A DNA stretch of 49,926 nt, from UHGV virus genome UHGV-1353897. One strand, given 5' to 3'. The notes under the pieces are model-generated. The model was not told the origin of the DNA. It worked only from the letters and a program-made list of their open reading frames with translations, and did not search any database. This document shows, piece by piece, positions 1,780 through 49,792 of this stretch (within the stretch, counting starts at the first letter, position 1; each line of letters starts with the position of its first letter). This DNA comes from a virus. The translations under genes and the position numbers were made by a program.

Positions 1780-1812
1780 TTCAATAGATGAAGGGGTTGC
1801 TATAATAGCAGC
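1780..1812 (+). promoter_or_regulatory. promoter candidate with -10 in palindrome
   Basis: GTTCAATAGA box, 12 nt, then TATAAT (1801-1806) embedded in palindrome GCTATAATAGC; 25 nt upstream of CDS start 1837. Confidence 0.35.
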
Positions 1813-1836
1813 TCCTTTTGTTTATCGGAGCAGTTT

Positions 1837-2496
1837 ATGTCCTACTCCCTGAAGGGGCTGATGAAGCGCCCCGTCCACACATTCTTTAAACCACCCGTCG
1901 TAAAGGGGATCTACCCAGCACGAGGGCAAATCTACTACGTCAAAGGCTCCAATGGTAGCGGTAAATCCACTGTGCCGTCTCAGCTGGCGGAGAGGGATCC
2001 TCAGGCGTATGTCGTGACCCATAACGGCAAGGTCATGCTGACTGTCTGTCCTTCGTTCAACGTGGTCTGTATCGGTAAATATGACAAGTCGAAGTCCAAG
2101 GGGGTTGATTCCCTGAAGGACACTGAGCAGATGTTGTTCGCGTTGTCTATTGCTGACCAACCAGAATACTTGAAATATGATGTGATTTTCGAAGGTATCA
2201 TTCCATCCACATTATTGAGTTCTTGGATCCCCCGTCTGACACGCCCACCACGTGAATTGGTTGTGCTCTTTATGGACACTCCTCTTGAAACGTGTATCGC
2301 CCGTGTTAAATCACGTAACGGCGGTGTGGACTTCAATGAAAGTCTGGTGGTTGAGAAGTGGGAGAGAGTTCATGACCATTGTCAACGACATAAAGACTTG
2401 TTCCCTACGGTGGCTGCGGGTATGATGAAGTCTCACGGCCTAACAGTAGACCAGGCTGTGATGGCATTCCTCTGTCGTGATTTTGGGAGTATCTGA
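1837..2496 (+). CDS. P-loop NTPase, kinase-like
   Basis: Walker A GSNGSGKST near N-terminus; GGAG SD before ATG; stop overlaps start codon of downstream TS-fold gene (TGATG), suggesting translational coupling. Confidence 0.6.
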   Translation: MSYSLKGLMKRPVHTFFKPPVVKGIYPARGQIYYVKGSNGSGKSTVPSQLAERDPQAYVVTHNGKVMLTVCPSFNVVCIGKYDKSKSKGVDSLKDTEQMLFALSIADQPEYLKYDVIFEGIIPSTLLSSWIPRLTRPPRELVVLFMDTPLETCIARVKSRNGGVDFNESLVVEKWERVHDHCQRHKDLFPTVAAGMMKSHGLTVDQAVMAFLCRDFGSI

Positions 2497-3542
2497 TGGA
2501 AATCAAAGCAATAAACAACAATGACATGCTGAAACAGGCTGTCTTGGCTATCCGTGAATTCGGGATCGAATCTGATCCTGGTAATGCTGAAATCAATACT
2601 GATAGCACCCGCTTCCTTGATGGCGTGACCATAACCGTCGCCGACATCCGTGACCGCTGGCTATCCGTTGAAGGTCGTAACTCATCGGCTATCGCTGCCA
2701 TCGGCGAGACCTTCTGGGTTCTGTCCGGGCGCGATGACGTTCGCTTCCTGTCCCGCGTGTTGCCCCGCGCCGCCAACTTTTCCGACAACGGCCACACATG
2801 GCGAGCCGCTTATGGTCCGCGTCTGTACGCCCATGGCCAGCTGGATAGCGTCATCAACCGCCTGCGCAAGAATCCAAACACTCGCCAGGCGTACCTCACC
2901 ATCTATGATCCGGCTCTGGATTCGGATGCTGGTCTGGCGAAGTTCAGCGAGAGCGGCGAAGCGAAGACTAAGGACATGGTGTGTAACCTGGCTCTGTTGT
3001 TCGCCATCGTTGAAGGTCGTCTGAACCTGACGGTTATCAATCGCTCACAGGATGTTCTGTGGGGTATGAGTTCAATCAACTTCATTGAGTTCTCTATTCT
3101 TCAGGAAGTGATTGCTCGGGTGTTGGATGTTGATGTCGGTCAGTACAAGCTATTCTCTAACAATCTTCATTACTACAACAATGAAGTCAGCCAGAAGCAG
3201 CTGGGCAAGATCACGAAGGACACCAAAGTAGAAGCTGGGTTCATCAACTCCATGATCCACTTCACGAACGTGACCAACCAGAACCATATCCGCGATCTGT
3301 TCACTGGCGTGCTTGTTCATTGTGACTTCGGTAGTCCTTGGGAAACTGTTGTTGCCTTCCTGAAGGAGTATGATGCGGATCGCGGTCTGATTGTGCAGAT
3401 GGCATACTGCCTGCACTGCAAATTGAATAACAAGCTCATTAACCTGGACCTGATTCAGGATCATGGATTGAACACCGCGCTCACCCATTCTCCGGTTGAC
3501 CGCAAGATCGTTGATCCTAAGTTCCTGGAAGGTGTAGTATGA
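2496..3542 (+). CDS. thymidylate synthase / pyrimidine hydroxymethylase superfamily enzyme (divergent)
   Basis: Core aligns to TS/dCMP-hydroxymethylase catalytic segment: Cys in MVCN, exactly 20 residues before RSQD (TS: PCH...RSxD), then GxxxxNF and LHYYNNE (TS GDxHxYxNH-like); 348 aa, longer than T4 td/gp42. Confidence 0.65.
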   Translation: MEIKAINNNDMLKQAVLAIREFGIESDPGNAEINTDSTRFLDGVTITVADIRDRWLSVEGRNSSAIAAIGETFWVLSGRDDVRFLSRVLPRAANFSDNGHTWRAAYGPRLYAHGQLDSVINRLRKNPNTRQAYLTIYDPALDSDAGLAKFSESGEAKTKDMVCNLALLFAIVEGRLNLTVINRSQDVLWGMSSINFIEFSILQEVIARVLDVDVGQYKLFSNNLHYYNNEVSQKQLGKITKDTKVEAGFINSMIHFTNVTNQNHIRDLFTGVLVHCDFGSPWETVVAFLKEYDADRGLIVQMAYCLHCKLNNKLINLDLIQDHGLNTALTHSPVDRKIVDPKFLEGVV

Positions 3543-4108
3543 TGTACCCAAATCTTGAATTCTTTACGGGGCGCAAGCGTTCCGGCAAGGACTTCTGTTT
3601 GGAGTCCCTCATCAGCTATCACCAACTACAGGGTGATATGGACATCCAGCGCCTTTCGTTCTCAGATGAACTGCGCCGGGTTGCCAACTTCATCTATCCA
3701 TGGCTGCCAGCGGAGGTAGAGGATGCCGTGAAGGACGTTCCTTACGTGCACCCTGATAACCCCAAGGGCTTAACTCCACGGCAGATCTGGCTTCATCTAG
3801 GCAGCGATACGGGCTTGCGTTACGTACAGCCTGATCTGTTCCTGGCATTCTTCAAGCGCTTCCAGCTTCCTTTGGTAGAGCAGAACCCCCACGTCCATTA
3901 TATCGTGAGCGATCTGCGTACCCCTCAGGAATATGAATGGGCGCTGAGTACGAAATGTCCTATCACCCGTATTTCAAAGGCCGACCGTGCTGGTATCATA
4001 GAGGACGATATAGAGGCTTTCATTGACCAAATGAAAGTGGACTACGAATTCCTCAATCCATTTGATGGTTGGGCACCGTTCGTTAAATTCTACGGAGAAC
4101 GTAAATGA
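3539..4108 (+). CDS. 1: deoxynucleoside monophosphate kinase (T4 gp1-like)
   Basis: N-terminal P-loop GRKRSGKD matches T4 gp1 GVKRSGKD; YIVSDLRTPQE resembles gp1 YYIVPDTRQDHE; ATGA overlap with upstream gene. Confidence 0.7.
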   Translation: MMYPNLEFFTGRKRSGKDFCLESLISYHQLQGDMDIQRLSFSDELRRVANFIYPWLPAEVEDAVKDVPYVHPDNPKGLTPRQIWLHLGSDTGLRYVQPDLFLAFFKRFQLPLVEQNPHVHYIVSDLRTPQEYEWALSTKCPITRISKADRAGIIEDDIEAFIDQMKVDYEFLNPFDGWAPFVKFYGERK

Positions 4109-4659
4109 TCACAGCAGGGCATATCCAAAGCCTGCTCGAACTCCAAAAGGCCACCAACGTGGCCTACTTTGGGGAAGAGTGGAAGAATGTATGGAGTCAG
4201 AATGCAGTCATCAACTCTATCTATCGTGAGTGGGCAGAGTTCCTTGATGAAACCACCCGTGACTGGAAGGTCTATGGCAACGACATCGGGTTTGACCATA
4301 CGAACGCAGTTTATGAACTGGTGGACGTGGTACACTTCATGTTGTGCTTCATCCTTGTGGACCGCACCAAAGGTGAGATCGAAGAAGAATTTGAAGTCCT
4401 TAGTAATCGCGAATTCACCCCGTGTGCTTTGGGTGTTGCAGGGCATCGCAATGTTACGTACCGCCTTGGGCAATTCATGAACGATCCTTGCGTTGAGACT
4501 CTCATGTTCTTCCTGTCGTCTGCGTGTTCTTATATGGAGATCGACATTGAGACTTACATACTGGCGCACAAACGCAAGAACGATCGCAATCGTCTACGTG
4601 CTTCTGGTGGCGCGGATTACGACAAGTCCGCAGAAACCCCTCTGACCCTGGAGTTCTAA
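4105..4659 (+). CDS. 56: all-alpha NTP pyrophosphatase (MazG-like; T4 gp56 dCTPase/dUTPase-like)
   Basis: EWAEFLDET and ELVDVVHFMLCF motifs typical of MazG/dimeric-dUTPase fold and reminiscent of T4 gp56 (recalled from memory, not searched). Confidence 0.55.
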   Translation: MITAGHIQSLLELQKATNVAYFGEEWKNVWSQNAVINSIYREWAEFLDETTRDWKVYGNDIGFDHTNAVYELVDVVHFMLCFILVDRTKGEIEEEFEVLSNREFTPCALGVAGHRNVTYRLGQFMNDPCVETLMFFLSSACSYMEIDIETYILAHKRKNDRNRLRASGGADYDKSAETPLTLEF

Positions 4660-5201
4660 TGTTTACAGTCGTCGTTTCATACCATGCGGAGAACGCTGCT
4701 CAGGCATCCTCCAAATTCGCCGAGCACATCATCGGCGGCGGACATAATGTATTCTTTACCGAATACACCAGGCCTGTTAAACCGGGCGACGGTCTTTCGG
4801 CGACTGTTACGCATAAGATCGCCAGCGAGCAACCAGAGTCTCTGTTCAGGATGATCGAAGAGTATGCCGGTGGTGGCACCAAGATACCAGATGAACTGGT
4901 AGACGTCTATTTTGAAGGCTCGATCTATTACATCCACGCTATGCCAAAGGATATAACCATTGAACAGATGATGTATATCCTGAATATAGCACTGAACACT
5001 GCGTGCATCAACCGCACGAACTACAACAATCTGCGCAATATGTACCTAACCGACCGGCATAATGACGCATCGTCACTTGTTGAGACAATGTCCCTGAAGA
5101 GCATCCAAGAGGCGGTTAACATTTTGTCCCAGAAGGTTATGGGTGTAGACTTACTAACGACGATTAACAACAAAGAGGAAGTGAAATGGCCAGTTCATTA
5201 A
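4659..5201 (+). CDS. hypothetical protein
   Basis: 180-aa ORF in tightly packed operon between the dCTPase-like gene and uvsX. Confidence 0.5.
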   Translation: MFTVVVSYHAENAAQASSKFAEHIIGGGHNVFFTEYTRPVKPGDGLSATVTHKIASEQPESLFRMIEEYAGGGTKIPDELVDVYFEGSIYYIHAMPKDITIEQMMYILNIALNTACINRTNYNNLRNMYLTDRHNDASSLVETMSLKSIQEAVNILSQKVMGVDLLTTINNKEEVKWPVH

Positions 5202-6271
5202 TGGACCGCATGCTGAAGGTTGCTAAGAAACACGATGACCAGGCTTCAGTGCTGTCCCAATCAGACGCTCTGGAACCGTCTATCATCTGTTCTACTGGTA
5301 TTCCCCTGATCGACATCGCATGGTCTGGGCGTATTGACGGCGGCCTGATCTCCGGTATCAAGATGATGGTGGGTGATTCCCGTACCTTCAAAACGATGTT
5401 CGGCCTGGTGGACGTCAAGGCGTACATGGACAAGTTCCCTGATGCTATCTGCGTCTTTGCGGACTCAGAAAAGGGTGCCAACGCCGATTACTGGACCTCT
5501 ATGGGCATTGACATGGACCGCGTCCTGTACGTACCGATCGACAACGTTGAACAGACCAAGATCCGCTTGCTGCAGATCCTACAGGAAGTCAAGAAAGGCG
5601 ACCATGTTATAATCTTCATCGACTCTATCAGCCAACTTCCCTCCACCAAGGAAGTTGAAGATGCGATCAAAGGGAACGACACTCAAGACATGACCCGCGC
5701 CCGTGCCCTTAACAGCTTCTGGCGTGTCATGACTCCCGAAATCAACAGCAAAAATCTCGTGTGTGTTTGGATCAACTCCTATTACGATGAGATCGGCAAC
5801 CAGTATGCCGAGCCCAACATCAAAGGCGGCAAGCAGGGCTTCTTATCCTCCAACTTGATCTGGTTTATCACCCGTTCTCAGGTGAAGGAAGACAAAGATC
5901 TGCTGGGCTGGAACTTCAACATAAGCATCATGAAAGGTCGCCATGTCAAAGAGAAAGCCAAGCTCCCTGTGACGGTACTGTACAACGGTGGTATTGATCG
6001 CTGGAGCGGCCTGCTTGAGATCGCTCGTGCTCTGGGTTATGTTGATATGCCGTCTTCCGGCTGGTATGTGCGTACAGCCAAGGGCGGCTTCGATCCTGAG
6101 AAGGAAAAGAAATATCAGAAGCGTCAGATGGGTGATGATTTCTGGTATCCGCTGCTGGAGAATGTCAACTTCGCCGATGACGTGAAGAAAATGTTCGGTG
6201 TTTCTAACGGTACTGTTATGCCTGCTAACATGCTGGAGCAAATGGACCATGTTATCAACACAAGCGAATAA
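5186..6271 (+). CDS. uvsX: UvsX RecA-like recombinase
   Basis: Extended similarity to T4 UvsX: Walker A GDSRTFKT (T4 GPSKSFKS), FPDAICVFADSE, IIFIDSISQL, DMTRARALNSFWRVMTP, KNLVCVWINS. Confidence 0.9.
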   Translation: MASSLMDRMLKVAKKHDDQASVLSQSDALEPSIICSTGIPLIDIAWSGRIDGGLISGIKMMVGDSRTFKTMFGLVDVKAYMDKFPDAICVFADSEKGANADYWTSMGIDMDRVLYVPIDNVEQTKIRLLQILQEVKKGDHVIIFIDSISQLPSTKEVEDAIKGNDTQDMTRARALNSFWRVMTPEINSKNLVCVWINSYYDEIGNQYAEPNIKGGKQGFLSSNLIWFITRSQVKEDKDLLGWNFNISIMKGRHVKEKAKLPVTVLYNGGIDRWSGLLEIARALGYVDMPSSGWYVRTAKGGFDPEKEKKYQKRQMGDDFWYPLLENVNFADDVKKMFGVSNGTVMPANMLEQMDHVINTSE

Positions 6272-10996: not shown

Positions 10997-11605
10997 ATGT
11001 CACTGAAAAACTTACTGAAACGCATCTTCACCACTGTTGAAGCCAACGTCACCACAAGTCTGGATAAACTGACCGACACCGAAAAGCGCCTGAACCTGGC
11101 TGCTCGCAAGCTGTCTGACGAAATCCGTCGCCTGGAGGAAGCCCGTGTCACCAACGTCCGCAACGGCGTCAAGCTGAAGAAGACCGCAGAACAGAACCTG
11201 AGTGAAGCCGCCAAGCGCGAAGAAGTTCTGAAGGATGCCATCGCTCGTGGTGTCACACCAACCCGCGCCGACGCCCTGATTATTCTGCATCGCCGCCGTA
11301 TCGGTGAAGCCCTGTTGTCTCAGGTGAAGGACATCGAAGCAAGCAGCGACAAACTGAACGGTGCGATCATCCAGCTGGGTGACAAACTGGACGAAGTCAA
11401 GTCCAATCTCGAGCTGGTTCGTGTTCAGAAAGAGACGAACGACCTGGGTCTGGTGCTCCCTGAAGATATCGATTATGCCGCTGGTATGACCACCATCGAT
11501 ATCGATGCCATCCTGCGCGAAACCGAAATCGCTGATTCGAGCTACTCCGCCAACAGCCCGTCGTCTATCGAAGCCGACAACTACCTCGCCAGCCTGAGCA
11601 AATAA
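10997..11605 (+). CDS. coiled-coil protein (PspA/IM30-like?)
   Basis: 202 aa, strongly alpha-helical heptad-like composition reminiscent of PspA/IM30; weak assignment. Confidence 0.35.
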   Translation: MSLKNLLKRIFTTVEANVTTSLDKLTDTEKRLNLAARKLSDEIRRLEEARVTNVRNGVKLKKTAEQNLSEAAKREEVLKDAIARGVTPTRADALIILHRRRIGEALLSQVKDIEASSDKLNGAIIQLGDKLDEVKSNLELVRVQKETNDLGLVLPEDIDYAAGMTTIDIDAILRETEIADSSYSANSPSSIEADNYLASLSK

Positions 11606-21258: not shown

Positions 21259-21768
21259 TTATTTGTCAGGGTTCACTAAAACAGGGGTGGATACCAGTTC
21301 GCCGTTCTTCACAGAATGCTGGACTACAACAATCTGATCGACCATGCGATATACTTCAATCCCAGCAGCCAGCATTTCAATAATGCCGTCTATGATACGA
21401 TATGGTCGGTCATAGAACACTTTAGCGATCTTGCCACTGTCGATAATACGACGGGTGCACTCTGGGCATGGACTATGAGTGACAAACATCACCAGACCAC
21501 AACAGTCTTCGGTGTGCTGGGGGAGTTTGCTCAGAGCATTCTCCTCGGCGTGGATAACACCCACCGATACCAGTTGACCGTCTACTTCCTTCTCACAGAC
21601 ATTAGGAGCGCCAGGAGCAGTCCCGTTCCAACCGATAGACAGGGGTTGGTCAACACGTGGGTCAACGATAACACAGCCAACCTTCAGGCGCTGGGCATAG
21701 CTGGACAGAGCGTATGCATGAGCCGAGCGCATATGCGCAAATAACATACGGGGTTTGATAGCCATCAC
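21259..21768 (-). CDS. cd: dCMP deaminase
   Basis: Cytidine/deoxycytidylate deaminase zinc motifs HAEENAL and PCPECTRRI; 169 aa. Confidence 0.85.
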   Translation of the reverse strand: MMAIKPRMLFAHMRSAHAYALSSYAQRLKVGCVIVDPRVDQPLSIGWNGTAPGAPNVCEKEVDGQLVSVGVIHAEENALSKLPQHTEDCCGLVMFVTHSPCPECTRRIIDSGKIAKVFYDRPYRIIDGIIEMLAAGIEVYRMVDQIVVVQHSVKNGELVSTPVLVNPDK

Positions 21769-30164: not shown

Positions 30165-30746
30165 TTATAGACCAAATTTGCTACGCCACTTTTCAACCTT
30201 GTGTTCAATAGCGTGCTCCACTTTAATGCGAGTGGCCATCAAAGAGGATCCACGGATCGCCCCTTCCCCACACCCCATGCGCGCAACATGCTTGATTAGG
30301 TCATTGACGAGTTGATCCAATCTGTCTTGACTGCGATAAGGCTGGTTGCACAACCGGATAATCCGGCCATGATAATGATGGATAAGATTCAGATGCTTTT
30401 GAGGATCACGATCAATCAGACGGAACCAGTCTTCTTCCAACAGATTAGAAGAAATATCGTTCACTGTCGCCATGTGGTTGATGACAGAGTCGATCATTTC
30501 GGCCTTGTTCAGAGAGCCGCGCATTTGGACGTCGTCATAATCCATGACGTACAGAAGGTCAATAGCAGAGATAATGACATCAGAAACTTCGCCATTCAAC
30601 GGCTCGGAAGATACTATGCCATGAAACACATCAGACAGTTCACAGATCTCTTCACCTAGTTTGTTCAGAACAAACACAGGAGAACGGTCTGGGGTATGAG
30701 CAGTACAGTCATAAGAAGTGTCGACGATAGTGTGTAGAAATTTCAT
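30165..30746 (-). CDS. hypothetical protein (possible all-alpha NTP pyrophosphatase-like)
   Basis: 193 aa; LGEEICELSDV and EVSDVIISAIDLLYV loosely resemble MazG EExxE/ELxDV motifs; weak. Confidence 0.3.
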   Translation of the reverse strand: MKFLHTIVDTSYDCTAHTPDRSPVFVLNKLGEEICELSDVFHGIVSSEPLNGEVSDVIISAIDLLYVMDYDDVQMRGSLNKAEMIDSVINHMATVNDISSNLLEEDWFRLIDRDPQKHLNLIHHYHGRIIRLCNQPYRSQDRLDQLVNDLIKHVARMGCGEGAIRGSSLMATRIKVEHAIEHKVEKWRSKFGL

Positions 30747-43076: not shown

Positions 43077-44237
43077 TCAGGTTCGTACATACCTCGGATG
43101 GTTCCCAGCGCGACCCTTTTGCAGGTGCCAGATATGCAGAGGAACACCAGTCTCAAAGAACACAGGCATCTTCCACTTCTGGACGCCTGGAACGTGCCCT
43201 GCAGGAGCCTTTTCGCACAACAGGGTATCTGGTAGCCAGAGCGAACGGGCTTCCCAGAGCGCTGCGCAGGAGTATTCAGGCCAGACGCGTTCCATGTAGT
43301 CTATCTCATCCCAGGTACGCTCTGCGTCCCACCCGATGTAACGGGTATTCTTCAGTCGGAAGAATTTCTTCAGCCAACAAGCACCGGAGGTTTCAAAGTT
43401 CAGGCGGTTGATGAACGTCAGGTGCCCGAACTCAGCCACACAATCTTGGAACGCCTGCTCAAGGTCGGCCTCAAGGATGTCACACTCTTCATCCGTGATA
43501 GGACAACCGTTGATCTTTTTCTTCCCGTGTTTAGTCACCCAATCGTCACGGTTGGACAAGAACGCCGCTCCATTACGGTTGGACTCGCTTCCATCACGAT
43601 CACGCAACATGAAGCCAGGGACGTCAATGGTGTATTCGTTCCCGAAGACCATGTTCAGGGCTTCCAGGAAGTTCCAGGCGCTCAGGCGACCGAAGTATTT
43701 CCAGGACATCGCCGTGTCCCACAGCTGGGTGAATTGTTCTGTCTTATCGATACACACCAACATCCCACGGAAAGCGTCATATTGAGTACGGCCAGCCAGC
43801 CAGTCAATATAGGACTGAACACACGGAATCATCTTGGACTTGCGGTAGCGACAGTCGGTATCGAATCGCATGCGATCAAAGTTCAGATTATACCAATCAG
43901 AGAAGCGCTGCATCTCTTCCTTAGACTGAGGCGGCACAGGGAACTCACTGTAGATAGTCCACGGCCCGACAGCGTTATAGCAACAACCCCACAGGAATGC
44001 CATCCAGATCTTGCGCTCGACTTTCTGTTCGAGGCTGATACCTTCAGTGACTTCAATCGCATAGTCCATCAGACGCATCTGCTGGTTGTGCTCTTCTGTG
44101 TAGGACAGCGCCTCCACCCAAGCCTTGAGCAAGTACATGCGATTCTCAGGCTTGCGATAATCAACAGCCAGGTCAATCGGGTACTTCCATTCAGTCGGAG
44201 GCGTATAGCCCGTCGGCATTTTAGATAGATGCGTCAT
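43077..44237 (-). CDS. hypothetical protein (Trp/Cys-rich, 386 aa)
   Basis: Long ORF with protein-like composition; no motif recognised. Confidence 0.55.
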   Translation of the reverse strand: MTHLSKMPTGYTPPTEWKYPIDLAVDYRKPENRMYLLKAWVEALSYTEEHNQQMRLMDYAIEVTEGISLEQKVERKIWMAFLWGCCYNAVGPWTIYSEFPVPPQSKEEMQRFSDWYNLNFDRMRFDTDCRYRKSKMIPCVQSYIDWLAGRTQYDAFRGMLVCIDKTEQFTQLWDTAMSWKYFGRLSAWNFLEALNMVFGNEYTIDVPGFMLRDRDGSESNRNGAAFLSNRDDWVTKHGKKKINGCPITDEECDILEADLEQAFQDCVAEFGHLTFINRLNFETSGACWLKKFFRLKNTRYIGWDAERTWDEIDYMERVWPEYSCAALWEARSLWLPDTLLCEKAPAGHVPGVQKWKMPVFFETGVPLHIWHLQKGRAGNHPRYVRT

Positions 44238-44577: not shown

Positions 44578-44777
44578 TTTGGTTCCTTGAATATTTTGTA
44601 ACCAGCAGCGCCGATAGACATCACCGCGCCAATACAGTACATCACAGTCACGTTCAACTTCTCTGAGGTTGTTAAGTCCAGAGGGGTGAAATGATAGGCT
44701 AGGGCAGTACACATTGAAACGGCTGCCATAACCAGACCAATGAACAACAGATAATTAGACAACCGTTTCATGATCAC
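44574..44777 (-). CDS. small membrane protein
   Basis: 67 aa with two TM helices. Confidence 0.4.
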   Translation of the reverse strand: MIMKRLSNYLLFIGLVMAAVSMCTALAYHFTPLDLTTSEKLNVTVMYCIGAVMSIGAAGYKIFKEPK

Positions 44778-46369
44778 CCCTTCTTCATCAGGTCAAGGAG
44801 AGAGCGCGACGCTGCCTTCGTTGCTTCTGGCTGGGCGCTCGCCTTGGTTTTAGTTTTGGATGCCTTCTGTGGCTTCTCAGGGACTCTGTGTGCCAAAGGG
44901 TTGCTACCTCTTATCTTGCGCAGCATGGGATACTGCTCGCAATATTTATGGAATTCATCTTTTGAAAGATTAAGCCCAACAAAGTCAATAACAAAGTCAC
45001 CGATAACCGCCAACGGGGCGTCAAAATATTTCAGGATGTTCCAGCCGACGGCCTTCACACCGTTTCCATTAGCAGCCTTGGCAATGAAGAGTTCATGATT
45101 GGAATCCGGTTCCAGCTCATACCCAATAGCAGAATATTCGCCCATGATCTTGACATGATCCTTGGTGTATTGATCGTTTCGTCCCCAGCCAGTGTCCTTC
45201 GCCGCCTTACCAGAACGACCGATGATACGCTTGTCGTAATCTTCCCGTGCCTGATAGATGAATGAGATGAATGCCATGTTGTTGAACCCCAAGTCCTGGT
45301 GTACGAACTTAGGACGCCACCGATGGCTCTGCATCATAGGTTCCCCTTCCAATATGATGGTAGAATCCTTGTATTTCCCTTTGATGTATTTCACCAATGA
45401 ATTGGCCATCTCAGAAGTCTTGAGAGTGGAGTGGATGAAGTCCATGGAAGTCCAAGAAGCCAGATCTGATTTGTTGGACACTGTATACTTGCCGATGAAC
45501 ACCAGATTGATTTCCTTGAACCAAAACCCAACCTGGATCATCTTCTTGTCGAATTCGTATTCTATGAGTTCTGGCTCATATTTGGTTCTCAACCACTCAA
45601 GGAATTGAACGACACGAGTCCCCTTTCCCGTTCCACTTGTCCCGCGAATAACGACAATACCCGGCGTCACGCTAGAATTTATCATAGTCATAAAACGTTT
45701 GTCCTCTTTGGGAATCCAACCATCTTTAAACATGGCGATCATATTACGAAAGACGCTCTCATCGCCCTTTAGATTACGATACTCTGTGTCCAGTAGTTTA
45801 GAATACCACAATCCGATAGATTTGTAACCACATCCTCGTTTTGGCATACAGGTAGGATTCACAGTACCGCCGTTGTTCACCCATCTATCATAGATCCTAC
45901 GGGCGTCCTTCCAAACCCACCAATAACCATTTGAAACCATGAATGGGTAGGGAGAATTACCCCTGTTCTCCTTTATTGATTTTATTACACGTTCCCGGTA
46001 TTCTGGATCATCCCAAGGATTTATACCAGATTTGTATTTCTTGCCAGTCCTAGCCAACGCCGCCTTAAATTGGTTTGGTATGATAGAATTGTCTCCTCCC
46101 AATTTCAGGTTCAGGCATAATGGGTCCAACAGTAACTCTTCCGTAACAATAATAGACTCCAGGTCGGATGCCTCCAACCTGGTTTCAAACTTTTCTATTA
46201 TCGTCTTTAAGAATTCAGAAGCGGGGTGAGATTCCAACAACCTTTTGATGATAACACCAGAACCCATATAGGGGTCTTGTTCGGGGGTGCATGAACAAGA
46301 CCGAATCCCGACGTAGAATCTCCCAGTTGGGACATGAGTTATCCTATATGTGTAATGGTAGCGAGCCAT
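44774..46369 (-). CDS. GIY-YIG-like N-terminal domain fused to P-loop NTPase-like domain
   Basis: N-terminus YHYTYRITHVPTGRFYVGIRSC..YMGSG resembles GIY-YIG nuclease motif; central Walker A GTSGTGKGT; 531 aa continuous ORF. Confidence 0.5.
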   Translation of the reverse strand: MARYHYTYRITHVPTGRFYVGIRSCSCTPEQDPYMGSGVIIKRLLESHPASEFLKTIIEKFETRLEASDLESIIVTEELLLDPLCLNLKLGGDNSIIPNQFKAALARTGKKYKSGINPWDDPEYRERVIKSIKENRGNSPYPFMVSNGYWWVWKDARRIYDRWVNNGGTVNPTCMPKRGCGYKSIGLWYSKLLDTEYRNLKGDESVFRNMIAMFKDGWIPKEDKRFMTMINSSVTPGIVVIRGTSGTGKGTRVVQFLEWLRTKYEPELIEYEFDKKMIQVGFWFKEINLVFIGKYTVSNKSDLASWTSMDFIHSTLKTSEMANSLVKYIKGKYKDSTIILEGEPMMQSHRWRPKFVHQDLGFNNMAFISFIYQAREDYDKRIIGRSGKAAKDTGWGRNDQYTKDHVKIMGEYSAIGYELEPDSNHELFIAKAANGNGVKAVGWNILKYFDAPLAVIGDFVIDFVGLNLSKDEFHKYCEQYPMLRKIRGSNPLAHRVPEKPQKASKTKTKASAQPEATKAASRSLLDLMKKG

Positions 46370-46683: not shown

Positions 46684-47463
46684 CTATCGGACGTATTGAT
46701 AATGACTAATCAGGCGGTTCACCACTTCGACAATATTGCGGTTCAGGAAGTCGAAGTGATTCTGACCTTCTACTGGTTTAATATAAAGCATGTCTTCCGA
46801 ATTCGAAAGATCCAGTTTTTCATAATTACCCTGAGGAACAAAGATGACAAAGATGTTGTTCAGACCACACGGCTCGACATACTTCGGATTGTCATCAATC
46901 AGGACATCGCCAGCCAGCAGATGCTTTTCGTCGGTGCTGACAAACCCGTTGAAGATACCAGGGAACTTATCATAGACAAACTGACGCTTGCTGCGCTCGT
47001 GTTCCGGCTCGCACTTCGACACCGCGATGAATTCAACATTGTCGAAATCTTCAAGCAAGATATCCTTCAGATTTACCAGGAACTCGTAAGCACCGGGGAG
47101 CGGGTTCATCTTGGCGTACAAGTCAGGGCGACGCCACCAATCCATAGGATCGTTACCGCTTGGCACACGTTGTTTGTGCATCCCCAATTGGACTTCATGG
47201 TATAGCCACGCCGGATGCGCACGTTCACGCATCAGAATAGCCAGGTCGCCAGCATGGGACATATAACACTCTTTGGTAATCGGCTGGAACTGGTATGACT
47301 TATGTTCCCCCGTAGCGATAGCAGCGGCGGCGATGTTCTCTTCGTTGAACCACTGCACCCAAGGGGAGAGGCTGTCGACCAACGTCAGGTCAACATCCAC
47401 GAGGACGCGATACAGACCACCGACCTTTGATTTCATATCATAGATACAAACCAGGTTGTTCAT
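46684..47463 (-). CDS. HAD-superfamily 5'(3')-deoxyribonucleotidase-like protein
   Basis: HAD motif I DVDLT near N-terminus and motif IV LIDDNP near C-terminus; 259 aa. Confidence 0.55.
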   Translation of the reverse strand: MNNLVCIYDMKSKVGGLYRVLVDVDLTLVDSLSPWVQWFNEENIAAAAIATGEHKSYQFQPITKECYMSHAGDLAILMRERAHPAWLYHEVQLGMHKQRVPSGNDPMDWWRRPDLYAKMNPLPGAYEFLVNLKDILLEDFDNVEFIAVSKCEPEHERSKRQFVYDKFPGIFNGFVSTDEKHLLAGDVLIDDNPKYVEPCGLNNIFVIFVPQGNYEKLDLSNSEDMLYIKPVEGQNHFDFLNRNIVEVVNRLISHYQYVR

Positions 47464-47863: not shown

Positions 47864-49792
47864 TCAACCTTTCTTCTTTTGCATCATGGCAAGAAGGTTC
47901 ACACGGCGCTTGTGTGACCAGCCGACCACGTCGAGGATAGACTGAATCGGATCAATGAAGGACTTCTCAAAGGCCGCCTGATAATCCACCCATTTGCCCA
48001 GACCAAGCTCCTCAGGGAAGAACTCAGGATATGCGAAGTAATTCTGGCCGAATGGGTTGCCTGGCTTCAACAACACCATCTGTACCTTATCACCCGACTC
48101 GATCATCGGTAGACCCAGATCTTCGTTCTTCTCAACCAGACGGTTGTAGCCCACACACGCCTTGGCAGCAAAATGAGCACCAGAGATGAACGATCCGTCA
48201 GCAGCCACACACTTCTCTATGTCGGACACGCCGGAAGCCTTGGCGATATCGTCTACAGAGAGTTTCATGTACTCCTCTTTGTACTGGGAGATGAGCGTCT
48301 GTACTTCCTCTTCGGTGCCGAGTAGGATCTTCTCATAACACTTGACAAGACGCTCACGACACCATTCCGGCGTGGTGGACTTGCGGGCTTCCAGACCTTT
48401 GAACTTAATCTTCGGCTTCTCGTACTTGATACCCTCACTGTCGTACACGGCCATGGCATACATCTTCTTGGCTCGCCAGACAGCGGCTGACGCAATGACC
48501 TCACGCTCCCATACCATGCGCTGTTCAAATCCGTTCATGGTGTTACACAGAAGCTGTGCCCACTCATTGGTCTTCGGCTGGTAGTTGTCTTTGATCCATT
48601 GGTCGATATTATCAACCATAGCATGATGGTCAGTAACATCAGGCCACAACTGCTTGACAAGACGCTCAATGCAGATGTAGTTGGAGTCGGTATCCCCTGC
48701 GATGACGAAGTCCTGGCCTGTTGTACCACACAGCTTGTTCAGATAGTCATCAGTGTAACGCTTGTTCCACTTGTTGATCAGCTGACCGGATGTGGTGATG
48801 GCTTCGGCAATGTTGAGGTTGAAGTACTCTTTGAACCAGACGTTTGAGATCGCGCCATAACCTGCGTTCATCAAGATCTTCAGACCTTGCTGTAGGGTGT
48901 CTTGAGCAACGCCCAGATCTTCCCACTTCTTCATCACTTCGGTCAGGGCATCAAGATCAATGTTCTTGTGCTCTTCATACCACTCTGGGTCATAGTAGCG
49001 AGACTTCATGGCAGACTCAAGATGGAAGTCGCCCTTCGACATCTCTTTACACCAGCCAGCCCACTGCTCATACTTCAGACCCTTGGCCTTCTCTACTTTA
49101 CGGTCGCTGTAGATACCACGCATGATTTCAGACAGGAACGACATCTTCTCGTTGCTGAAGAATTGAACGTTCGGCGTGAACGACACGTTGTAGCGGCGCA
49201 GGGTTTCAAAGTGGAACTCACCCAGGGCAACCAACTCATCAACAACCTGCAGGCGTTCGTCAATCGCACGCAACAGCTTGTCGTGAAGGGCTTTCATCAA
49301 CCGACGTTTGTGCATCGGCGTTGCCATGTTATTCATCTGAGCAGCCAGCTCTTCACACATAGCCTCAATAATCTCGCGGCGCTGGTGTTTGTCGCCAACG
49401 ATAGTCTCTGGACCGAGGTTGTACTGCTGAATGATGTGAGGATACAGGGAGTTCAAATCTTCCGAGAAGACCCAGAAGTAGATTCCTGGTGTCACATCCA
49501 TGACGTATGCACCCTCAAAGTCGGTCGGACCATCGTATACACGCTGGATCTTAGGCACTATCCCCTTCTCATACAGACGATAGTAGCACATGGCCAGCCA
49601 CGGAGACACAGTGCCCAGACCGTCTTCATAGTTGGACTTGGTGCGGTACGCAAGGACGAACATCAGCTGGAGCAGGCGCAGCTTCTGTTCAAGTCGCCAT
49701 ACCAGCTTAACGTCTTTGATACCATATCGGGTGTGTTTGCAGTAGTCGTTGAAGTACAGATCAAAGAGCGACTTGCTCTCACTGTAGTCCAT
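47864..49792 (-). CDS. 43: family-B DNA polymerase, polymerase domains only (T4 gp43 C-terminal part)
   Basis: Pol B motif A DLNSLYPHII, motif B KILMNAGYG, motif C VIAGDTDS, KKMY motif; collinear with T4 gp43 from about residue 320 onward; no 3'-5' exonuclease domain in this ORF. Confidence 0.9.
   Translation of the reverse strand: MDYSESKSLFDLYFNDYCKHTRYGIKDVKLVWRLEQKLRLLQLMFVLAYRTKSNYEDGLGTVSPWLAMCYYRLYEKGIVPKIQRVYDGPTDFEGAYVMDVTPGIYFWVFSEDLNSLYPHIIQQYNLGPETIVGDKHQRREIIEAMCEELAAQMNNMATPMHKRRLMKALHDKLLRAIDERLQVVDELVALGEFHFETLRRYNVSFTPNVQFFSNEKMSFLSEIMRGIYSDRKVEKAKGLKYEQWAGWCKEMSKGDFHLESAMKSRYYDPEWYEEHKNIDLDALTEVMKKWEDLGVAQDTLQQGLKILMNAGYGAISNVWFKEYFNLNIAEAITTSGQLINKWNKRYTDDYLNKLCGTTGQDFVIAGDTDSNYICIERLVKQLWPDVTDHHAMVDNIDQWIKDNYQPKTNEWAQLLCNTMNGFEQRMVWEREVIASAAVWRAKKMYAMAVYDSEGIKYEKPKIKFKGLEARKSTTPEWCRERLVKCYEKILLGTEEEVQTLISQYKEEYMKLSVDDIAKASGVSDIEKCVAADGSFISGAHFAAKACVGYNRLVEKNEDLGLPMIESGDKVQMVLLKPGNPFGQNYFAYPEFFPEELGLGKWVDYQAAFEKSFIDPIQSILDVVGWSHKRRVNLLAMMQKKKG

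Follow-up and report, generated by a model that had tools for sequence, protein, structure and literature searches.

The window analyzed here, a 49,926-nucleotide stretch of the virus genome UHGV-1353897, encodes a predicted deoxynucleoside monophosphate (dNMP) kinase and a predicted nucleoside triphosphate (NTP) pyrophosphatase, whose genes exactly fill positions 3539-4659 and directly follow a gene for a thymidylate synthase (TS)-fold protein. We propose that the kinase and the pyrophosphatase very probably constitute the pre-replicative arm of the ViI-type thymidine hypermodification pathway of the Ackermannviridae. The protein families, folds, orthology with ViI, and gene order and coupling that underlie this proposal were computed; for the reactions after replication, the nature of the base and the failure to incorporate thymidine, we rely on published work on orthologs.

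The original prediction, derived from the sequence alone, envisaged a modified-base lifestyle of the T4 type, in which dCTP would be excluded and hydroxymethyl-dCTP supplied, and considered the identity of the replaced base open. Remodeling of the dNTP pool for a non-canonical base is borne out, but the T4-like component is not, given the thymine-directed HMUD and ADDT genes and the Asn in the specificity loop of the TS-fold protein; nor is the base an open issue, because the orthologs of ViI gp67, gp243 and gp247 in the window, together with the published chemistry, indicate a thymine-derived base. The pathway itself has been described previously (Kutter 2011, PMC3184105; Lee 2018, PMC5889632; Lee 2021, PMC8989533), and the window comes from one more phage of a lineage that is already well sampled. 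The present analysis has a corrective value: the base is predicted to be derived from thymine, not from cytosine, and several genes of the pathway are misannotated in public records. Thymidine hypermodification blocks many restriction enzymes, which matters for phage therapy and for the sequencing and cloning of these phages.

Relatives of the window and layout of the gene block

Positions 1800-5300 of the window show 98.5% DNA identity to Escherichia phage AV101 (Ackermannviridae, Aglimvirinae; Agtrevirus-like). The search retrieved 267 related records, the best of them from Ackermannviridae; most represent phages that infect Enterobacteriaceae or further enterobacteria such as Dickeya and Serratia. 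We assign the window to an Agtrevirus-like phage of the Ackermannviridae. The order of genes is the same as in Salmonella phage ViI and E. coli phage CBA120, both in the block that includes the kinase of 5-hydroxymethyl-deoxyuridine (5-hmdU) in DNA (5-HMUDK), TS-fold protein, dNMP kinase, dUTPase-like protein, ACT-like protein and UvsX, and in the series DNA polymerase, nucleotidase, second 5-hmdU DNA kinase (HMUDK2) and aGPT-Pplase2. The ViI proteins are 60-91% identical to their counterparts in the window, with the exception of HMUDK2 (47%).

Stop and start codons overlap at the junctions of the first block (TGATG at 2494-2498, ATGA at 3539-3542, ATGA at 4105-4108 and TAATG at 4657-4661), and because of these overlaps, the genes from position 1837 on are almost certainly co-transcribed and translationally coupled. 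The original placement of the kinase and the pyrophosphatase in one operon with the TS-fold gene is thus upheld. The first of the overlaps joins the TS-fold gene to the adjoining 5-HMUDK gene; the association of dUMP hydroxymethylase and 5-HMUDK genes has been noted before (PMC5889632). A search for terminator-like sites on the plus strand between 1837 and 6271 found none, and a sigma-70 promoter scan of the block revealed no convincing promoter.

The TS-fold protein and its pyrimidine specificity

The TS-fold protein matches the Pfam Thymidylat_synt profile (E=1.5e-15), retains the catalytic Cys163, Arg183, Ser184, Asp186, His225 and Tyr227, and is 75% identical to the ViI product annotated as thyA and 100% identical to the AV101 protein. 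It groups with the dUMP hydroxymethylases of SPO1 and YuA (with about 34% identity to the SPO1-type enzyme), and its best sequence matches in the PDB are hydroxymethylases (MilA, a CMP hydroxymethylase), not TS. The match to MilA suggests that the protein belongs with hydroxymethylases rather than with the methyl-forming synthases. Cytosine specificity, as could be surmised from the same best match, was rejected since MilA has Asp at the pyrimidine-discriminating position and the residue in the window protein differs.

In the HMMER alignment, the Asn of the motif 'GMSSIN' in the TS-fold protein is opposite Asn177 (E. coli numbering) of the TS motif 'FN'. This Asn is common to the SPO1-type and YuA-type dUMP hydroxymethylases, and the corresponding sequence of T4 gp42 is 'RND', with Asp179. 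A BLASTP comparison of the TS-fold protein with T4 gp42 yielded nothing significant, and the best PHROG differs between the two (3676 and 160, respectively). Because the clade has one extra residue in the loop and the MAFFT alignment is offset by one, we consider the argument for uracil from the specificity residue to be supportive but not decisive alone; the gene context and the published chemistry of the orthologs provide the decisive evidence. On this combined basis, the TS-fold protein is most likely a dUMP hydroxymethylase that makes 5-hydroxymethyl-dUMP (5-hmdUMP).

The dNMP kinase and the NTP pyrophosphatase

The kinase contains a P-loop, FFTGRKRSGKDF, that spans residues 8-19 and within which G11, K13, R14, S15, G16, K17 and D18 are invariant across 14 close homologs. 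It is 91% identical to the ViI protein 'dnk' and matches phrog_139 (deoxynucleoside monophosphate kinase) with E=7.5e-47, over the same span of the profile as T4 gp1 (1.8e-65). Exhaustive search of 1.84 billion representatives identified 122 relatives, and a profile was constructed from 64 of the distant homologs. When this profile was compared with the PDB, the T4 dNMP kinase (1DEK) was by far the best match (E=5.9e-21), and its hhalign comparison with T4 gp1 gave a probability of 98.5% over 169 columns. According to hhalign, the window kinase is a short form, without an insertion of roughly 50 residues that T4 gp1 has. The AlphaFold model of the kinase (pLDDT 87.6) retrieved two chains of 1DEK as the top two Foldseek matches in the PDB (E=1.4e-6, TM 0.57). 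A phmmer search of the PDB with the single kinase sequence yielded nothing significant, and hhalign comparisons of narrow profiles of close homologs with single T4 sequences produced probabilities of 14% and 24%. These results assign the protein to the T4 gp1 dNMP kinase family, as originally proposed on the strength of the GRKRSGKD motif, and from the gene context, we infer that it is an hmdUMP kinase.

For the pyrophosphatase, the match to Pfam dUTPase_2 (PF08761) scores 37.4 bits with a cutoff of 22.9 and extends over residues 7-167 of the protein and positions 2-159 of the 162-position profile. The protein also belongs to phrog_173 (3.8e-40), and T4 gp56 is a member of both families (5.8e-39 for phrog_173). 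The structural model (pLDDT 90) consists entirely of helices, and the top 26 Foldseek matches in the PDB are only dimeric dUTPases (from Campylobacter jejuni, trypanosomatids and staphylococcal phages). The acidic metal ligands E42, E45, D48, E49, E71 and D74 (ExxE ... ExxD) and the N-terminal Q14/N18 motif are invariant in 29 homologs, and the segment ELVDVVHF aligns with EIVDIWHF of the C. jejuni dUTPase and ELVDIFHF of T4 gp56. The product of the ViI dUTPase gene is 60% identical to this protein. Thus, of the description as a gp56-like, MazG-fold dCTP/dUTP pyrophosphatase, the gp56 family stands and the MazG fold applies at the superfamily level; the specific family to which we assign the protein is that of the dimeric (all-alpha) dUTPases, which includes T4 gp56. 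Its family and gene context point to a dUTPase that possibly acts on dTTP as well. The protein is unlikely to act as a dCTPase, given that ordinary cytosine is retained in this phage (about 49% GC) and dCMP is deaminated rather than excluded.

Kinase-pyrophosphatase fusions in metagenomic contigs

Eight of the 10 longest homologs of the kinase are natural fusions in which the kinase is followed by a C-terminal dUTPase_2 domain. In all three contigs that are long enough to judge (L011, L012 and L015), the fusion gene is located directly downstream of a TS-fold gene. An alignment included the TS-fold proteins from two of these contigs, and both retain the Asn. The TS-fold gene of L012 contains an intein with an HNH domain inside, and L011 additionally carries HMUD2, HMUDK_hel and GlcNAc-transferase-like genes. 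These observations indicate that the TS-fold protein, kinase and pyrophosphatase form a module that is conserved well outside the Ackermannviridae; this conservation, together with the fusions, supports a pathway-specific rather than generic role for the kinase and the pyrophosphatase. The occurrence of the fusions downstream of TS-fold genes is a small addition to the published picture.

Predicted genes for the modification of hmdU in DNA

The first gene of the block encodes a protein that matches Pfam HMUDK_HMUD1 with E=7.4e-108 and is 88% identical to ViI gp67 (YP_004327432), and the predicted amino-acid:DNA transferase is 90% identical to ViI gp247, the serine:DNA transferase (YP_004327568). 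The match of the second 5-hmdU DNA kinase to Pfam HMUD2 has E=7.7e-152 and covers residues 236-530, so that the kinase domain occupies approximately residues 236-531; this protein is 47% identical to ViI gp243 and 48% identical to the AV101 kinase, in comparison with 76-97% for the products of the flanking genes. In vitro, ViI gp67 and gp243 both phosphorylate 5-hmdU in DNA, carrying out the same reaction, and gp247 attaches serine to the phosphorylated base (5-phosphomethyl-dU, 5-PmdU) in DNA (PMC8989533). The product of gp247 is then decarboxylated in vitro by gp226, a pyridoxal phosphate (PLP)-dependent enzyme, to yield 5-(2-aminoethoxy)methyl-dU, also denoted 5-NeOmdU (PMC8989533; PMC5889632), which replaces about 40% of the thymidine in ViI and CBA120 (PMC5889632; PMC11721090). 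The modification genes are conserved family-wide (PMC11721090).

In ViI, the gp226 gene is located about 8 kb past the polymerase end of the block, and tblastn recovers the decarboxylase with over 90% identity in relatives from Agtrevirus and Limestonevirus (LIMEstone1, MK-13, P46FS4 and 29 Escherichia phage records). In the window phage, the decarboxylase gene would lie beyond the window. A search for glucosyltransferases had been suggested originally; in this phage they are probably the wrong target. The relevant post-replicative enzymes already sit in the window. No glucosyltransferase family was detected among the 38 window open reading frame (ORF) products scanned against Pfam (some small ORFs were left unscanned), nor did any gene name in the retrieved segments of AV101 and ViI point to one.

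The public annotation of these genes is frequently misleading. RefSeq records of ViI, Ag3, SKML-39 and others, as well as phrog_800, call the 5-HMUDK a 'terminase small subunit'; HMUDK2 goes under 'guanylate kinase' or 'homing endonuclease', the hydroxymethylase under 'thymidylate synthase', and such errors are widespread.

The HMUD2 locus differs from that of ViI in that the kinase follows, in the same reading frame, an N-terminal part resembling GIY-YIG homing endonucleases, an arrangement also seen in F-LimXI of Limestonevirus. The ORF is a single uninterrupted frame of 531 codons, the N-terminal part of which (MARYHYTYRITHVPTGRFYVGIRS...) matches the homing endonuclease family phrog_314 (2.9e-24), and the whole ORF is assigned to phrog_15209. 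The GIY-YIG domain itself was not confirmed by Pfam in the N-terminus (E=0.078), and the assignment draws on the PHROG homing-endonuclease families. LIMEstone1 and PC3 carry the same 531-amino-acid (aa) ORF, there named only 'homing endonuclease F-LimXI'. The endonuclease of AV101 is another one (SegD-like), with an ORF of its own located upstream of a kinase of the ViI type, and the C-terminal tail (about 50 residues) of the window kinase is nearly identical to that of the AV101 protein, unlike the remainder (48%). The locus looks like the product of cassette exchange driven by homing.

Other nucleotide-pool genes

Both additional nucleotide-pool enzymes named in the original prediction, the dCMP deaminase and the HAD-type deoxyribonucleotidase, were recovered: the deaminase by its Pfam and PHROG matches and zinc motifs, and the nucleotidase by an NT5C score above the cutoff and the DVDLT motif. 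The true start of the deaminase gene is probably the ATG one codon within the GTG. The nucleotidase is 76% identical to ViI orf00239, and its gene is located between the DNA polymerase gene and the HMUD2 and ADDT genes, as are those of the orthologs in ViI, PC3 and LIMEstone1; it is a candidate dTMPase. The window additionally encodes a second, MazG-like NTP pyrophosphatase, whose gene adjoins the topoisomerase II genes, the same place as that of the annotated MazG-like Vi01_011 in ViI (a comparison of position, not sequence). The coordinates of all these genes are given in Table 1.

Table 1. Genes of the window assigned to nucleotide metabolism and base modification, their block neighbors, and the metagenomic loci with fused genes
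Feature	Coordinates	Strand	Remarks
5-hmdU DNA kinase	1837-2496	+	219 aa; opens tightly packed block
TS-fold protein	2496-3542	+	348 aa; Pfam Thymidylat_synt
gp1-family dNMP kinase	3539-4108	+	189 aa; P-loop GRKRSGKD
Dimeric-dUTPase-fold NTP pyrophosphatase	4105-4659	+	184 aa; Pfam dUTPase_2
ACT-like phage domain protein	4659-5201	+	180 aa; Pfam ACT_phage (PF24021) E=3.4e-78
UvsX-like protein	5186-6271	+	361 aa
dCMP deaminase, predicted to supply dUMP	21259-21768	-	Pfam dCMP_cyt_deam_1 E=4.2e-16; phrog_174 E=3e-53; HAE and PCPEC zinc motifs
Second, MazG-like NTP pyrophosphatase	30165-30746	-	phrog_1247 E=4.7e-34; EExxELxD and ExxD motifs
Amino-acid:DNA transferase (clade 2 aGPT-Pplase)	43077-44237	-	Pfam ADDT E=5.4e-60
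Second 5-hmdU DNA kinase, in frame with N-terminal GIY-YIG homing-endonuclease-like part (F-LimXI type)	44774-46369	-	Pfam HMUD2
HAD/NT5C-type 5'-deoxyribonucleotidase	46684-47463	-	Pfam NT5C 35.8 bits, cutoff 24.8; HAD motif I DVDLT and DD motif
TS-fold plus fused kinase/dUTPase_2 locus, contig L011	4919-7128		
TS-fold plus fused kinase/dUTPase_2 locus, contig L012	397-3677		
TS-fold plus fused kinase/dUTPase_2 locus, contig L015	1854-4159		

The predicted pathway and its closest known counterparts

In the proposed scheme, the dCMP deaminase and the pyrophosphatase (dUTP to dUMP and PPi) would raise the dUMP pool, and the latter enzyme would also keep dUTP, possibly dTTP too, from the polymerase. 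The TS-fold enzyme would convert dUMP to 5-hmdUMP, the gp1-family kinase would phosphorylate this product to 5-hmdUDP, and the host NDP kinase would complete the synthesis of 5-hmdUTP, to be inserted by the phage polymerase instead of dTTP; the HAD nucleotidase would probably clear dTMP. After replication, both 5-hmdU DNA kinases are predicted to phosphorylate hmdU in DNA, the gp247-type transferase would then add serine, and the PLP decarboxylase, presumably encoded outside the window, would yield 5-(2-aminoethoxy)methyl-dU, with leftover hmdU converted to thymine.

Key elements of this scheme have been anticipated for CBA120, in which no hydroxymethyl-deoxycytidine (hmdC) was detected and 3H-thymidine was not incorporated, and for which the authors connected hmdU synthesis with the TS-like gene, its dNMP kinase neighbor and the dUTPase, a possible dTTPase (PMC3184105). 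The enzyme set of the hydroxymethyluracil (hmU) phages includes dTTPase/dUTPase, dTMPase, dCMP deaminase, dUMP hydroxymethylase and hmdUMP kinase (PMC8989533). The Bacillus phages of this group (SPO1, SP8 and phi-e) use the same logical set as the window to replace dTTP with hmdUTP, and the SPO1-type hydroxymethylase shares the Asn-containing loop with the TS-fold protein. The hmU phages end at hmdU, whereas the lineage of the window would convert it further on DNA, and the window counterparts of the biochemically defined dTTPase and dTMPase are tentative assignments. With T4 (gp56 dCTPase/dUTPase, gp42 and gp1), the window shares the kinase and pyrophosphatase families and the general logic of NTP breakdown to NMP, hydroxymethylation and re-phosphorylation, but the pyrimidine is cytosine in T4 and apparently uracil in the window (Asp179 and Asn, respectively). 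The glucosyltransferase logic of T4 is absent from the scheme, in which modification would proceed via DNA kinases and an amino-acid transferase.

A more far-reaching version of the scheme, which we consider doubtful, holds that the dUTPase-like enzyme, with or without the HAD nucleotidase, is the long-postulated dTTPase that fully excludes dTTP, such that all thymine in the virion would be made on DNA from hmdU; the kinase and the pyrophosphatase would be channeled with the hydroxymethylase. Separately, the divergent HMUD2 allele might shift the set of modified thymines.

Alternative interpretations

Several observations weigh against the assignment of the kinase and the pyrophosphatase to the thymidine hypermodification pathway. 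The placement of the TS-fold Asn opposite Asn177 needs a one-residue insertion in the loop, and the gap-free MAFFT alignment sets Ile opposite Asp179 of T4 gp42. For the kinase, the pyrophosphatase and the nucleotidase, the predicted substrates follow from family membership and gene context. BLASTP alignments of the kinase and the pyrophosphatase with T4 gp1 and gp56 comprise only motif-sized stretches, and the kinase has no match to Pfam DNMK (PF21448) at E<=0.01; this model is narrow, giving 358 bits for T4 gp1 and 22-27 bits, just under the cutoff, for some of the distant homologs of the kinase. The MazG-like protein could be the enzyme that clears dTTP, instead of or alongside the dUTPase-like protein. 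The PLP decarboxylase (ViI gp226) was not found among the window genes examined, and the final step is predicted from relatives. Finally, with the divergent HMUD2 allele, the extent or sequence context of the modification could differ from that in ViI.

The last two points bear on the alternative that survives best, albeit with a low probability, namely, that the pathway is the same but its end product is not: the phage might modify a different fraction of thymines or thymines in different contexts than ViI does, or might halt at an intermediate such as O-serinyl-dT. The divergence of the HMUD2 allele, joined to a homing endonuclease and flanked by far more similar genes, and the presumed location of the decarboxylase gene outside the window are compatible with this possibility. 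However, the transferase that selects the amino acid and the gp67 ortholog are highly similar to their ViI counterparts, the decarboxylase is conserved in LIMEstone1, the bearer of the same fused allele, and the two ViI kinases perform the same reaction in vitro.

A somewhat less credible alternative, which we regard as improbable, is that an ordinary dUTPase and a broad-specificity dNMP kinase serve housekeeping functions, and their proximity to the hydroxymethylase carries no meaning for the pathway. dUTPases and gp1-like kinases are frequent in phages without modified bases, T4 gp1 also phosphorylates dTMP and dGMP according to the T4 annotation, and the proteins that the pyrophosphatase matches in structure are genuine dUTPases. 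Against this possibility, the TS-fold, kinase and pyrophosphatase genes are joined by overlapping codons, and this gene order is found again in unrelated contigs from metagenomes, with a kinase-pyrophosphatase fusion gene right after a hydroxymethylase-like TS-fold gene. Furthermore, a phage with hmdU needs some enzyme for the phosphorylation of hmdUMP, and the gp1-family gene, coupled to that of the hydroxymethylase, is a candidate.

T4-style replacement of cytosine, in which a dCTPase, a dCMP hydroxymethylase and an hm-dCMP kinase would produce hydroxymethylcytosine, possibly modified further, is hardly tenable: the T4 gp1 and gp56 PHROG families of the kinase and the pyrophosphatase and the cytosine-specific MilA as the best PDB match of the TS-fold protein speak for it, but the specificity position is occupied by Asn, as in TS and the dUMP hydroxymethylases, and not by Asp, the TS-fold protein shares neither significant BLASTP similarity nor the best PHROG with gp42, the window has genes for two 5-hmdU DNA kinases and for a transferase of the gp247 type, acting on hmdU in DNA, CBA120 is devoid of hmdC (PMC3184105) and the ViI modification is on thymidine (PMC5889632), and dCTPase activity would amount to starvation for a phage with ordinary C.

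Additional features of the window

Several features surround the genes discussed above. Between the ORF at 925-1761 and the start of the 5-HMUDK gene, the plus strand contains a strong hairpin with a 13-bp stem followed by TGTTTAT (1790-1818). The loop region of this hairpin includes TATAATA, similar to a -10 box or a late promoter of the T4 type; the element may act as terminator, as promoter or in both capacities. At the other side of the pyrophosphatase gene, the start of the ACT-like gene overlaps the pyrophosphatase stop codon, and ViI and AV101 have the gene in a syntenic place; ACT domains typically bind small ligands, for instance amino acids. The ORF for DNA polymerase B (47864-49792, minus strand) encodes 642 aa, compared with about 1000 aa in ViI and AV101, and is either interrupted or runs past the end of the window; in the record of Dickeya phage Kamild (LIMEstone-like), the coding span of the polymerase is stated as not determinable. 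Among the early or middle genes, the window encodes a PspA/IM30-family protein (10997-11605, plus strand; Pfam E=3.7e-10).

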